A stretch of DNA of 10,089 bases from the IMG/VR virus record IMGVR_UViG_2675903357_000009; one strand, written 5' to 3'. Positions 4,347 to 5,911 of this stretch are shown here, one piece after another. The translations under genes and the position numbers were made by a program. The notes below the pieces were generated by a model. It was given only the letters and a program-made list of their open reading frames with translations. It had not been told where the DNA came from and ran no database searches. This stretch comes from a virus. Taxonomy: Duplodnaviria; Heunggongvirae; Uroviricota; Caudoviricetes. Position 1 is the stretch's first letter. Each line of letters opens with the position of its first letter.

Positions 4347-4386
4347 GGGAGCCGCATAATAACGACGCGTAATTAATTCTTCAATA

Positions 4387-5445
4387 TCATCCGTTCTGGC
4401 TGACTAAATCCTGTACTTCCCGAACCGTCTGCTCAAAACGTTCAGTCTCCAGCTCAACGCCAATTGCACGACGCCCGAGCGCCAGTGCCGCTTTCACTGT
4501 CGAACCCAACCCCATGAAAAAATCTGCAATCAGGTCACCCGGACGACTGCTAGCGCTGATTATCTGCTGCAGCATTTCTGCCGGTTTTTCGCACGGATGT
4601 TTCCCGGGATAGAACTGCACCGGTTTATGCGTCCACACATCGGTATACGGCACCTGCACCGTCACGCCAAAATACCGCCGCAGATGTTTATATTCACTCA
4701 GCAGCTCCGCATACTGCCGGTTCAGTGAGGTATACGTATCCACCAGCTGGTGGTGGAGCTTTTCCAGTTCACCACGCCGATGCTTCTCTTCTGCCACCCG
4801 GGCAAACAGCGCCTGTAATTTCAGATAATCGCTTTCATTCGGCAACTGCCACTGACCGGCACTGAACCAGTGCGACACCATGTTTTTCTTTCCTGTGGCA
4901 TCTGCAATCTGTTTTGCCGTTATCCCCAGGGCAGCTCGCGCATCACGAAAGTAAGAAATCAGCGGGGCCATCACATGCTGTTTCAGTGCACTGCCCTTCG
5001 CCGCATACCCGGCATCTTTCGGACGATACGGCCCCTGATAATGTTCCGCGAACAGAATGCGCTCTGTGGCGGGGAAATACGCCCGCAGGCTTTCCTTGTT
5101 GCATCCGTTCCAGCGTCCGGACGGCTTCGCCCAGATAATATGGTTCAGCACACTGAAGCGTTCACGCATCATGATTTCGATATCAGATGCCAGGCGATGA
5201 CCACAGAACAGGTAAAGACTTCCGGCAGGTTTCAGCACCCGCCAGAACTGCGCCAGACACTGGTCCAGCCACTTCAGGTAATCATCGTCGCCCTTCCACT
5301 GGTTATCCCAGCCCTCAGGCTTCACTTTAAAGTACGGCGGGTCCGTGACTATCAGGTCAACAGAATTTTCGGGTAACGACCGGATAAATTCCAGGCAGTC
5401 GGCGTTGATTAACTCACAACTGGATATTTTTACAGTATTAAGCAT
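4387..5445 (-). CDS. DNA methyltransferase (N6-adenine/N4-cytosine class, DPPY motif, beta-type motif order)
   Basis: 352 aa with an N-terminal DPPY (motif IV) and a C-terminal FxGxG AdoMet-binding motif (DFFMGLGST), plus a long middle insertion. ATG at 5445-5443. Confidence 0.85.
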   Translation of the reverse strand: MLNTVKISSCELINADCLEFIRSLPENSVDLIVTDPPYFKVKPEGWDNQWKGDDDYLKWLDQCLAQFWRVLKPAGSLYLFCGHRLASDIEIMMRERFSVLNHIIWAKPSGRWNGCNKESLRAYFPATERILFAEHYQGPYRPKDAGYAAKGSALKQHVMAPLISYFRDARAALGITAKQIADATGKKNMVSHWFSAGQWQLPNESDYLKLQALFARVAEEKHRRGELEKLHHQLVDTYTSLNRQYAELLSEYKHLRRYFGVTVQVPYTDVWTHKPVQFYPGKHPCEKPAEMLQQIISASSRPGDLIADFFMGLGSTVKAALALGRRAIGVELETERFEQTVREVQDLVSQNG

Positions 5446-5595
5446 GGATCATTAAGCCTGTCTCTGATAGGCTCATTCTGCTTTTGCGCAAAGCAGTGGG
5501 CCTGAGGTTTGCTTGTGAACCCAACGCATGAGCAGATGGCTGGTGGGTGCCCCTAACACCCACCAGCCGCCCATTTACCACAAATAAAAAAGCCT

Positions 5596-5793
5596 TCACT
5601 GCGGAAGGCGTCTGTAACAACCGAACTGATAGTCTGCCAGACCCGCCATAACCAGCTGGGTCAGTATTAACTGGCAGCGTTCGCGTGAAAGGTAAGTATT
5701 CTGCGCTATCTCCCCGACTGTCGCCGGTTCGGTAACGCTTAATTCATTAAACACCACTCTGGCGGTTTCTGTCATATCCTGCTGTTTTAGCAT
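5596..5793 (-). CDS. Small putative winged-helix/HTH DNA-binding protein (65 aa) upstream of the methyltransferase
   Basis: ATG at 5793 with a strong AAGGAAAAG Shine-Dalgarno. The segment TVGEIAQNTYLSRERCQLILTQLVMAGL looks helix-turn-helix-like by eye. Confidence 0.5.
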   Translation of the reverse strand: MLKQQDMTETARVVFNELSVTEPATVGEIAQNTYLSRERCQLILTQLVMAGLADYQFGCYRRLPQ

Positions 5794-5911
5794 GTCTTTT
5801 CCTTTTCCGGTTAACGTGACACACCAATAACTCTTGTCGAAAAAGCCAGCAAGCTGAAAGACAGGTATTCACCGCCACCAGCGCGTTTACTGTACTGACG
5901 CGATTTCAGTC

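Follow-up and report, generated by a model that had tools for sequence, protein, structure and literature searches.

The closest known relatives of the enzyme treated here are M.EcoGII and M.EcoGI from prophages of Escherichia coli O104:H4 C227-11 (Murray et al., 2018; PMC5778455) and M.EcoMV from ST131 (PMC4659465). In the available portions of these two papers, all three enzymes are described as prophage-encoded and non-specific, as silent in the lysogen and as toxic on expression; M.EcoGII, for which methylation of adenine irrespective of context was shown biochemically, needs no partner for full activity in vitro, and phage 1720a-02 is named as a carrier of a very similar enzyme (PMC5778455). 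The same portions of PMC5778455 and PMC4659465 make no mention of an upstream 65-aa gene or of the leader RNA described below. Another precedent is the com-mom operon of phage Mu, a late and toxic modification gene whose start region is held in an mRNA stem that is opened post-transcriptionally, and in Mu-like prophages com-like genes precede the non-specific adenine methylases Hin1523, Nma1821 and Hia5 (Drozdz et al., 2012; PMC3299994, in the portion available). How, then, is a gene of this kind arranged and controlled in a lambdoid prophage?

The window analysed here is a stretch of 10,089 nucleotides from a virus of the Caudoviricetes (IMG/VR record IMGVR_UViG_2675903357_000009), in which the interval between the terminator tR' and the tRNA gene ileZ is present in two copies. 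The features to be discussed, all on the minus strand, are as follows.

6018-6839, minus strand: gene of the late antiterminator Q, 273 aa, upstream of the cassette (Pfam Antiterm PF03589, E 1.6e-53).
5913-6017, minus strand: pR'-tR' interval, the left conserved flank of the cassette, identical in copy 1 and holding the putative tR'.
4381-5911, minus strand: cassette of 1531 bp, in copy 2 only (two-copy alignment).
1990-2003, minus strand: empty site of copy 1, where tR' is joined to the sequence upstream of ileZ via 4 nt, TGCG (alignment and repeat families D3 and D4).
5815-5853, minus strand: conserved motif CTTGCTG-N12-CAGAGTTAYNTGTRTGTCA upstream of the small ORF (40 distinct upstream regions).
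5596-5793, minus strand: small ORF (ORF call) for a 65-aa predicted winged-helix protein, phrog_331, an optional companion of the leader-methylase unit.
5582-5609, minus strand: second intrinsic-terminator-like hairpin with a U-rich tract, the hairpin itself at 5592-5609 (terminator scan and fold).
5443-5576, minus strand: conserved structured RNA leader, 134 nt long, whose last three bases (5443-5445) are the ATG of the methylase.
4387-5445, minus strand: M.EcoGII-family beta-class N6-adenine DNA methyltransferase, 352 aa (Pfam PF01555).
4356-4384, minus strand: promoter-like site TTGAAG-17-TATTAT before ileZ (promoter scan, consensus match only).
4097-4346, minus strand: tRNA cluster of ileZ (CAT)/argN/argO type, the right conserved flank of the cassette, downstream of it (ARAGORN and Rfam tRNA).

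A reading made from the sequence alone had described a 1.5-kb insert that is found in one copy only, lies between conserved flanks and carries ORFs of 352 and 65 aa, and all of this is borne out. Alignment of the two copies gives a common left flank (...CCCGCCGCCGAGCGGGTTTTTTAT) and a common right flank (GAATTAATTACG...ileZ), between which copy 1 has TGCG alone (about 1994-1999) and copy 2 the 1531 bp; the repeat finder gives the same identical flanks (D3, 1856-1999 = 4243-4386; D4, 1990-2108 = 5905-6023), and both ORFs lie on the minus strand where they had been placed. It would be easy to postulate that copy 1 arose from copy 2 by simple deletion. We rejected this, since the 4-nt filler cannot be derived from the ends of copy 2 and the empty-site allele also occurs in five phage records, for example mEp460_ev081. 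Thus, the two copies are alternative mosaic alleles. Over its full length the cassette has 95% nucleotide identity to phage 1720a-02 (the best match, 95.2%) and to Stx2a and Stx2d phages, and 87% to phiP27. Upstream of the methylase are Q, RusA, DUF968 and hok/sok, and downstream of it phage tRNAs. Both copies belong to prophage remnants scrambled by IS600, the right end of which lies at 1-73, while a 5'-truncated IS600 at about 2514-3653 cuts a second Q gene.

By context, the Q gene upstream makes the cassette a late-operon module; its counterpart in a syntenic E. coli locus is annotated 'antitermination protein'. Two predicted intrinsic terminators, each a GC-rich hairpin with a run of U behind it on the transcribed strand, lie in the path of late transcription. 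The one at 5918-5937 is probably tR', as judged by its position and by the precedent of lambdoid and Stx phages (PMC7547250, in the portion available), and a weak isrK-like match was seen at 5914-5985 in the Rfam search. The other, GCCTTC-CGCAGT-GAAGGC followed by TTTTTTATTT, overlaps the stop codon of the small ORF and stands immediately before the leader. Of 78 distinct upstream segments, 35 have such a hairpin and U-rich tract, as against 15% of shuffles; it is common and not universal, so that the idea of a terminator before every leader is only partly true. The claim that the cassette is read from the Q-dependent late promoter is supported by position: behind tR' and the second terminator, only Q-modified transcription should reach it. 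The motif at 5815-5853 is kept from Escherichia to Providencia and Morganella; it was not called as a promoter by the sigma-70 scan and could be a promoter-like or 5'-UTR element. As for the promoter-like site before ileZ, its -35 hexamer straddles the right boundary of the cassette.

This arrangement is not peculiar to the window. The order Q, terminator, small ORF, methylase, then lysis genes or stx recurs in SfV, cdtI, phiP27, Stx2a and Stx2c phages and also in phages of Hafnia, Providencia, Citrobacter and Morganella, and the position after Q and a terminator and before lysis genes or tRNAs and stx is kept across many unrelated lambdoid phages with different Q types. The same cassette precedes tRNAs and stx in Stx2a, Stx2d and Stx2e phages. 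The module shares its insertion zone and its presumed dependence on Q antitermination with the accessory genes (stx, tRNAs, nanS-p) that lambdoid and Stx phages are known to carry between Q/tR' and the lysis genes, and differs from them in its cargo, a DNA methylase with a putative post-transcriptional control element of its own. That this gene pair is common at this position in lambdoid and Stx phages is already known.

By its sequence the methylase is intact. It matches Pfam N6_N4_Mtase (PF01555) with E 7.9e-42 and 144.1 bits against a cutoff of 26.7, is assigned to the PHROG 'DNA methyltransferase', and has its nearest solved relatives among beta-class methyltransferases including RsrI and CcrM (E 7e-25), to which both halves align. 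The order of motifs is that of the beta class, motif IV (DPPY, residues 35-38), a target-recognition domain and motif I (FFMGLGS, of the form FxGxG, residues 309-315). The earlier proposal of a DPPY methyltransferase, against which missing catalytic residues would have counted, is upheld by the Pfam match and by the presence of the catalytic motifs. The protein shares this architecture and its prophage setting with M.EcoGII, to which it is identical at 324 of 349 positions with 2 gaps over the full length, that is about 93%, an approximate figure because the reference, taken as printed in the supplement of the SUPREM paper, was machine-read and contains a few obvious reading errors. It differs in its length (352 against 349 aa), and in about 25 substitutions, among them FFMGLGS for FFMGSGS, and its specificity is predicted from that of M.EcoGII. 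Most likely the enzyme of the window methylates adenine non-specifically, as M.EcoGII does, and the supposition of an orphan methyltransferase with a methylation motif to be mapped does not fit so close a relative of a non-specific enzyme. Two roles had been offered, anti-restriction and epigenetic control of the host; because enzymes of this family are non-specific, silent in lysogens and toxic, the former is far more likely than the latter. Thousands of assemblies, that of Shigella sonnei 53G among them, contain exactly the same methylase sequence. Neither the cassette nor the enzyme is in itself new or unusual.

What about the small ORF upstream? Its dN/dS of 0.03-0.5 and an AlphaFold2 model with a pLDDT of 91.6 indicate that it is a real gene. 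The model predicts a winged helix (H1-b-H2-H3-wing; helices at residues 9-16, 26-33 and 37-49, strands at 53-56 and 59-62), and Foldseek returned only generic winged-helix matches at E of about 2e-3, with TM-scores up to 0.81 to MarR and IclR winged-helix domains; the best of the matches are winged-helix dimerisation domains of SAM-dependent methyltransferases. In the Pfam search the match to the TrmB regulator (PF01978), from which the NCBI name comes, lies below the cutoff (18 bits against 25.6, E 0.0026), and neither HTH_3 nor Xre was matched. Relatives with as little as 44-48% identity still share its ORF length and the motifs MLKQQDMTE and CQLILTQLVMAGL. Most members of the family are acidic (pI 4.8-6.1), those of the cdtI and Stx2c subtype basic (pI 9.2-9.6). 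Among 1.84 billion proteins the family has 84 representatives, all stand-alone except for two long proteins with short repeated partial matches; no domain fusion that could hint at a role was seen.

A search of viral contigs with the small-protein alignment gave 80 loci with identical or near-identical small proteins (79 at 100%, one at 98%), and for the sake of diversity this set was replaced by a DNA-pattern scan and a species-level genome scan. The ORF is present in 57 phage records, 130-350 bp upstream of the methylase wherever both coordinates are listed, and in 42 of 69 leader-bearing species loci, the other 27 being without it; among these species-level loci it is found only beside the methylase and never without the leader. 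Its conservation beside the methylase in related phages, on which the earlier proposal depended, thus holds. Since the protein is found only next to the leader-methylase unit, it probably modulates expression or activity of that unit, although this is the least certain step of our account.

Between the second terminator and the methylase lies an apparently new element. Its parts, numbered so that position i is window coordinate 5577 minus i, are the following in 5' to 3' order, all on the minus strand.

Block A: AAAUGGGC.
P1 (5537-5568, minus strand): hairpin with a perfect 12-bp stem in the window.
Block B: GCUCAUG.
Block C: GGUUCACAAGC.
Block D: GGCCCA.
P3: hairpin CUGCUUU/AAAGCAG.
Block E: AUGAGCC.
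Block F: GCUUAAUGAUCC, followed by the AUG.

The leader is more conserved than the small ORF flanking it. A covariance model finds it in the window as the sole match (124.7 bits, E 1.7e-33), and elsewhere with 57 bits in N15 and 38-53 bits in Vibrio. In species-level loci it is present in 69 of 80, with one match per locus and a span of hosts from Shigella to N15, Proteus, Gilliamella, Vibrio and Aeromonas. The search covered 93 sources, the window and 92 loci, and yielded 82 full-length matches, all on the sense strand and all with the start codon of the methylase or of a Com-like ORF as their 3' end. The latter is the case of Vibrio and Aeromonas, where the leader is followed by a Mu Com-like gene (Pfam PF10122, 24.6 bits with the cutoff at 22.9) that itself stands between leader and methylase; such a zinc-ribbon gene (CxxC...CxxC) is absent from the window and was found only in these Vibrio and Aeromonas relatives. 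Where the small ORF is missing or pseudogenised, the leader is kept. Rfam 15, searched over 5380-6030 at gathering thresholds and at E up to 10, has no family above threshold for the leader, the best score nearby being P26 on the opposite strand (24 bits against 36). No published description of the leader or the small gene came up in searches by sequence string or topic, a PCR primer being the sole string match; the leader is apparently undescribed. An invariant AUG/GUG/UUG at block A could start a non-conserved uORF. A small ORF coded inside the leader, on the other hand, was rejected, since open frames differ among loci and the changes in P1 are compensatory, not synonymous.

The leader is highly conserved in sequence, and many of its pairs never vary. 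On the diverse set, MAFFT with RNAalifold gave a fragmentary consensus owing to indels; the helices were set by hand and the sequences then realigned with a covariance model. In the core fold, helix A:D closes a junction holding the hairpins P1 and B:C, and hairpin P3 comes next. Over 79 distinct rows, 84.7% of the cells of this fold are paired against 24-49% with slid partners. Twenty-one pairs are changed on both sides, and 0 of 500 shuffles reach the observed value, a statistic inflated by the kinship of the sequences; the alignment was fitted to the core fold. Pair 48-77, for example, is CG in 32 rows, UA in 17 and AU in 10, and pair 52-73 is UA in 46 and CG in 19. P1 is formed from entirely different sequences in Rahnella, Ewingella, Proteus, Providencia, Limoniibacter and N15, and over the whole leader, compensatory changes together with strand-specific G-U pairs are seen in at least four helices.

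A second set of pairings excludes the first: block C pairs with F and block D with E. Here 88.9% are paired and 18 pairs (118 cells) are changed on both sides, and it should be mentioned that these pairs were not in the model used to align the leaders. Three pairs of helix C:F are AU 44/GC 11, AU 50/GC 9 and GC 51/AU 13, and the base right before the AUG is paired as AU in 43 rows, GU in 8 and GC in 3. The alternative fold would bury positions -14 to -1 before an AUG that has no good Shine-Dalgarno sequence. For the window, the computed energies of the two folds differ by no more than 4 kcal/mol and stand no more than 6 above the minimum free energy; the fold of lowest energy is one that buries the AUG region. 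In distant taxa the sequestering fold is energetically poor, which could come from misalignment or mean that the core fold alone is universal. From these comparisons of aligned sequences, core and alternative pairings are both supported by covariation; translational gating is our inference. Of a riboswitch the leader has generic hallmarks only, namely a multi-helix junction, invariant unpaired blocks and two exclusive pairings.

Can the small gene and the hairpin be read in another way? The small gene had been called reminiscent of controller proteins, with the hairpin at 5538-5568 as its possible DNA operator, and one may build on this a scheme in which a C-protein-like factor binds that palindrome and times an orphan sequence-specific methylase for epigenetic control of the lysogen. 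The hairpin is real, being P1 of the leader, and its arms are a perfect 12-bp inverted repeat in the window; the small gene always stands just upstream of the methylase, and the predicted fold of its product is of a DNA-binding type. To this extent the locus resembles restriction-modification systems with C-proteins, in which a small gene lies upstream of the methylase beside an inverted repeat. Nevertheless we hold this scheme to be extremely unlikely. The protein would be a winged helix and not an Xre-type HTH, for which reason the C-protein assignment was rejected, its TrmB match is below cutoff, and most of its family is acidic; no restriction endonuclease gene adjoins the cassette, which contains no further coding-quality ORF and has Q and tRNAs as its neighbours, and enzymes of this family act non-specifically and stay silent in the lysogen. 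The hairpin, with the whole leader, is kept without the small gene in 27 of 69 loci, accepts U-G and G-U pairs, which in a DNA palindrome would count as mismatches, and is wholly replaced in sequence in other genera with its pairing maintained, so it behaves as an RNA helix and is unlikely to be primarily an operator of the 65-aa protein. Distinctly improbable, if less so, is that the winged-helix protein is a partner of the methylase and not a nucleic-acid binder, made just before the enzyme as an inhibitor or antitoxin-like buffer or as a dimerisation or targeting factor. Its strict co-location with a toxic enzyme, its mostly acidic character and its Foldseek resemblance to dimerisation domains of methyltransferases would agree with such a role; M.EcoGII, however, is fully active alone, 27 of 69 loci lack the partner, no fusion protein links the two, the fold is generic at its Foldseek E of about 2e-3, and the cdtI and Stx2c subtype is basic.

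The 134-bp spacer might also act as DNA, as promoter and operator of the methylase, as a recombination or Chi hotspot, or as a boundary of mosaic exchange. Conserved sequences at module boundaries are indeed typical of lambdoid mosaics, both arms of P1 contain Chi sites, which are 30-fold enriched in the window, and long unpaired stretches (AAATGGGCGG, AACCAAGGCCCA and GAGCCTA) are near-invariant. But unpaired conserved blocks are also normal in structured RNAs, the sigma-70 scan showed no promoter-like site in the spacer, and every leader match has the same orientation and the same distance to the start codon; with the compensatory changes and strand-specific G-U pairs in at least four helices, these points make a DNA-level role very unlikely. 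Chi as the cause of P1 conservation was rejected, since Chi is lost in many taxa where the pairing of P1 stays. Less easily set aside, though still unlikely in our view, is that the cassette is a dead remnant, inert in this strain. It sits in a defective prophage with two pieces of IS600, a truncated second Q and a late region that is interrupted downstream of the tRNAs, and in a prophage so broken the module may never be induced. Against this, the complete Q, tR', small ORF, leader and methylase are all intact and the identical protein is kept in thousands of assemblies, and the objection concerns activity in this strain, not the nature of the module.

The reading that we prefer, and consider probable, is that the cassette is a late, Q-dependent accessory module of lambdoid phages for non-specific adenine methylation in the service of anti-restriction, under layered silencing that includes gating by the leader. 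During lytic growth adenines of the phage DNA would be methylated non-specifically, by which the progeny DNA may escape restriction in the next host. Since the enzyme harms the cell, it would be kept off in the lysogen by layers of control. Without induction, transcripts from pR' would stop at tR' (5918-5937) and those leaking through at 5592-5609, as may be supposed from the anatomy of the locus and as is shown in lambdoid and Stx phages; upon induction, Q-modified polymerase would pass both terminators and transcribe the small gene, the 134-nt leader, the methylase and the tRNAs. The leader would then gate translation of the first ORF behind it, the methylase in Enterobacterales and the Com-like zinc-ribbon gene in Vibrio and Aeromonas, the alternative pairing hiding the start region of the methylase (-14 to -1). 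Once made, the methylase would modify A in any context, if the biochemistry of M.EcoGII applies. The 65-aa protein would be an optional extra that brings a terminator and a conserved upstream motif of its own, needed neither for catalysis nor for retention of the leader.

As for the leader itself, we put forward, as a proposal to which we give somewhat less than an even chance, that it is an undescribed class of cis-acting RNA switch, the ancestral control of non-specific adenine methylase genes in temperate phages of Gammaproteobacteria, toggling between the junction fold and the start-burying fold. What would it respond to? The invariant unpaired blocks imply a conserved effector, and leaders look alike whether or not their locus has the small ORF, a point against the winged-helix protein in this role. 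The only candidates present across all hosts are a small molecule (a SAM/SAH riboswitch), autoregulation by the methylase, or the translation or transcription machinery. Mu com-mom shares with the locus a late toxic DNA-modification gene, and the Vibrio and Aeromonas homologues even carry the Com-like gene; the window, however, has no Com gene, its enzyme is a methyltransferase and not Mom, and its leader is a multi-helix RNA unrelated to the stem-loop of mom. The com-methylase operons of Mu-like prophages follow the same logic, a non-specific adenine methylase having replaced mom behind a com-like gene, but they belong to Mu-like and not lambdoid phages, the available portion of their description reports no structured leader, and the likeness is one of function (PMC3299994).

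M.EcoGII is widely used as a reagent and is reported to act on RNA as well; Stx and other lambdoid prophages commonly carry it. The candidate structured RNA in front of its relatives in prophages of E. coli, Shigella and Salmonella is lacking in Rfam, and it may help to explain how the toxic methylase is silenced; a leader with two folds exactly at the start codon of the methylase, in dozens of genera, offers a concrete hypothesis of gating. If the proposal of a switch is true, its range would cover phages of Enterobacterales, Orbales, Vibrionales and Aeromonadales, N15 and many Stx phages among them. Many Stx2 phages have the cassette immediately before the tRNAs and stx on one late transcript, so that its terminators and leader would be on the path of the polymerase to the toxin genes.

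Everything of interest is on the minus strand. The features of the window are listed here in the direction of transcription, beginning with copy 2, the late-region copy that carries the cassette (4381-5911).

Features of the window
8853-9178, minus: hok/sok type I toxin-antitoxin (sok RF01794, 112 bits, and a 70-aa Hok-like ORF)
7217-8275, minus: DUF968 gene
6836-7216, minus: rusA
6018-6839, minus: Q antiterminator, 273 aa
5913-6017, minus: pR'-tR' interval, with a weak isrK-like Rfam match (16 bits)
5918-5937, minus: intrinsic terminator (tR') behind Q
5596-5793, minus: small ORF, 65 aa
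5592-5609, minus: second terminator-like hairpin, at the 3' end of the small ORF
ahead of the methylase gene, minus: spacer, 150 nt
4387-5445, minus: methyltransferase gene, 352 aa
4097-4346, minus: three tRNAs of copy 2
3831-4020, minus: sRNA STnc100 (Rfam RF02076, as for copy 1), downstream of the copy 2 tRNAs
about 2514-3653, plus: 5'-truncated IS600, cutting into the second Q copy
2062-2513, minus: second Q gene copy, cut by IS600
1884-1959 and 1707-1783, minus: tRNAs of copy 1, reached from the second Q copy directly past the same terminator
821-1010, minus: sRNA STnc100, downstream of the copy 1 tRNAs
1-73, plus: IS600 right end

The flanks of the late region are present twice because the truncated IS600 cuts the second Q gene copy. 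The two STnc100 copies score 132 and 124 bits. The hok/sok locus lies in the early or nin region of the prophage, and the pR'-tR' interval occupies the place from which Stx phages make a short, terminated late transcript, the source of the sRNA StxS. Copy 1 has two tRNAs (one of ileZ type with a CAT anticodon, and Arg-TCT), a form also seen in phiP27, and copy 2 adds Arg-TCG. Since the exact methylase protein is present in thousands of assemblies, including Shigella sonnei 53G, and the IS600 junction has no match among the complete E. coli genomes in our collection, the window is most likely an S. sonnei prophage remnant scrambled by IS elements. In related S. sonnei genomes a complete IS600 stands downstream of the tRNAs in place of this junction.

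The cassette had been described as present in one copy only, between conserved flanks, and alignment of the copies together with repeat families bears this out: 4381-5911 is flanked identically in copy 2, and copy 1 holds TGCG alone at that place. Is copy 1 then a deletion product of copy 2? This is ruled out, because the TGCG filler is not derivable from the cassette ends and the empty allele is also found in five phage records; as far as the sequences tell, the two copies are alternative mosaic alleles and not a parent and its deletion product.

The methylase matches Pfam N6_N4_Mtase (E 7.9e-42), its DPPY and FxGxG motifs are both intact, as the sequence-only reading had supposed for DPPY, and the solved structures closest to it are beta-class enzymes. 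Nucleotide identity of the cassette is 95% to phage 1720a-02 and to many Stx2a and Stx2d phages; to phiP27 it is 87%. According to Murray et al. (2018, PMC5778455), the 349-aa M.EcoGII methylates adenine non-specifically, its gene lies on a cryptic prophage and is silent in the lysogen, and efforts to express it constitutively harmed the cell; they name 1720a-02 as the carrier of a very similar enzyme. The window methylase is identical to M.EcoGII at 324 of 349 positions, an approximate figure as the reference was machine-read from the SUPREM paper supplement with a few obvious errors. Match, motifs and identity thus make it, by its sequence, a new member of the known, characterised M.EcoGII family.

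The order Q, terminator, small ORF, methylase, (terminator), then holin/lysis genes or tRNAs with stx, recurs despite differing Q proteins in SfV, cdtI, phiP27, Stx2a phages (from gene tables), Hafnia yong2, a Providencia phage, Morganella IME1369_02 and Citrobacter phiNP; for unannotated Stx2c and Klebsiella records the comparison covered the arrangement of small ORF, spacer and methylase alone. A homologue, gp52, sits at the same position in N15. This shared position behind Q and a terminator supports the earlier proposal that the cassette is placed for the Q-dependent late promoter, from which the methylase would be expressed by read-through. In cdtI, two oppositely oriented genes stand between Q and the small ORF (L005, the cdtI locus, 834-2222). 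The small ORF, the leader (the 134-nt RNA element before the methylase) and the methylase remain together there despite the intervening genes, which shows that these three move as one unit whatever happens to Q.

What is the 65-aa protein? Its ORF keeps a length of 63-67 codons and the motifs MLKQQDMTE and CQLILTQLVMAGL down to 44-48% identity, with dN/dS of 0.03-0.5. AlphaFold2 models the protein confidently as a winged helix (pLDDT 91.6), for which Foldseek finds generic winged-helix matches only (E about 2e-3): dimerisation domains of SAM-dependent O-methyltransferases, MarR and IclR regulators, T4 MotA and the mRNA-binding winged helix of SelB. Pfam TrmB scores under the cutoff, and the PHROGs entry for the family reads function unknown. 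The family is tiny: clustering at 90% identity gives 334 clusters and, among 1.84 billion proteins, 84 representatives remain at 50%. Its members are stand-alone small proteins; two long matches (835 and 1264 aa) cover short repeated stretches and look spurious. Most members are acidic, and the cdtI/Stx2c subtype is basic. The suggestion that the small gene is controller-like did not hold: a C protein is ruled out by the wrong fold, by the lack of a restriction gene and by its optional presence, as many loci dispense with it. A motif, CTTGCTG-N12-CAGAGTTAYNTGTRTGTCA (5815-5853, minus), stands 35-75 nt ahead of each winged-helix ORF compared, conserved over 40 distinct sequences that range from Escherichia to Providencia. 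It is missing wherever the ORF is missing, and may act as a weak promoter or as an element of the 5' UTR.

In an alignment of distant phages, the spacer is better conserved than the small ORF. The leader within it (5443-5576, minus) has the methylase ATG at its end. Several loci have leader and methylase without the small ORF, the leader then following tR' or another hairpin directly, and in one locus an intact leader lies beside a pseudogene of the small ORF. With many more copies gathered by pattern matching and by scanning genomes at species level, a covariance model trained on 38 diverse copies finds exactly one match per locus, on the sense strand in every case (window, 124.7 bits; N15, 57; Gilliamella, 49.6; four Vibrio loci, 38-53; Aeromonas phiARM81ld, 22.9). 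Among 80 species-representative loci the leader is present in 69, with the small ORF in 42 and without it in 27, four of which have a Com-like ORF; no locus has the small ORF without the leader, and 11 have neither, two being truncated. In Vibrio (L284-L287, about 1197-1500) and Aeromonas (phage phiARM81ld, L012, 1703-2044) the leader ends at the ATG of a Mu Com-like zinc-ribbon ORF (Pfam PF10122). A strong Shine-Dalgarno sequence comes next and then the methylase, in what would be a two-tier control arrangement.

The leader runs through blocks A, P1, B, C, D, P3, E and F to the AUG, and P1 is the hairpin at 5538-5568 already noticed from the sequence. P1 is unrelated in sequence yet still pairs in Rahnella, Ewingella, Providencia, Proteus, Limoniibacter and N15, and that of SfV, cdtI and Stx2c has U-G and G-U pairs, acceptable in sense-strand RNA only. 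The 10-kb window contains 11 copies of the Chi octamer GCTGGTGG, against 0.35 expected from shuffles; those in the cassette are a back-to-back inverted pair within the methylase gene (4740-4753), one per arm of P1 (5539-5546, 5560-5567) and one at 5875-5882. Chi as the explanation of the hairpin is ruled out, as it is not conserved in P1 of distant genera.

Covariation supports two mutually exclusive helix sets. In counts from related sequences with many invariant columns, aligned to fit one of the two folds, the core fold (A:D, P1, B:C, P3) has 84.7% of cells paired over 79 distinct rows, against 24-49% with partners slid by 1-3 columns, and 21 pairs changed on both sides, values attained by 0 of 500 shuffles; pair 48-77 is CG 32, UA 17, AU 10, and pair 52-73 is UA 46, CG 19. 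The alternative fold (A:B, P1, C:F, D:E, P3) has 88.9% paired and 118 cells changed on both sides. Its C:F pairs covary although they lie outside the model used for alignment (AU 44/GC 11; AU 50/GC 9; GC 51/AU 13), and so does the base directly 5' of the AUG with its partner (AU 43, GU 8, GC 3). C:F spans -14 to -1 before the AUG, where a good Shine-Dalgarno sequence is missing. In the window the folds are 4 kcal/mol apart, with the start region buried in the minimum-energy fold; in distant taxa the core fold alone is near the minimum, so the sequestering helix is best supported within Enterobacterales. Block A includes an AUG (5572-5574, minus), in place of which N15, Gilliamella and Aeromonas have GUG and a single locus has UUG. 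A start codon is possible there in every locus, the peptide downstream being variable in length and not conserved; a regulatory uORF may begin at this block.

How might such a module work? The methylase would be made late, under Q, to shield phage DNA from restriction, the module would be insulated by its two terminators, and the leader may gate translation. Of this, the comparisons establish the enzyme family, the anatomy, the conservation and the covariation; Q read-through, gating by the leader and a part against restriction in vivo are inferred. What, then, throws the switch? Leaders look alike whether or not their locus carries the small gene, which argues against the 65-aa protein as the effector, and a partner shared by every host could only be the methylase itself, a metabolite or host machinery. 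In function the proposed scheme is parallel to com-mom of Mu and to the com-like and methylase operons of Mu-like prophages (PMC3299994), but the RNA is a different one. The leader matches no family in Rfam 15, literature searches by topic and by sequence string returned no description of it (the sole string match is a PCR primer, and absence there is no proof of novelty), and the consulted parts of the M.EcoGII papers mention neither leader nor small gene. The cassette was thus read correctly apart from the controller idea, and it is in itself ordinary, cassette and enzyme being already known and characterised; what is added is the conserved leader, probably a new cis-regulatory RNA of moderate interest.
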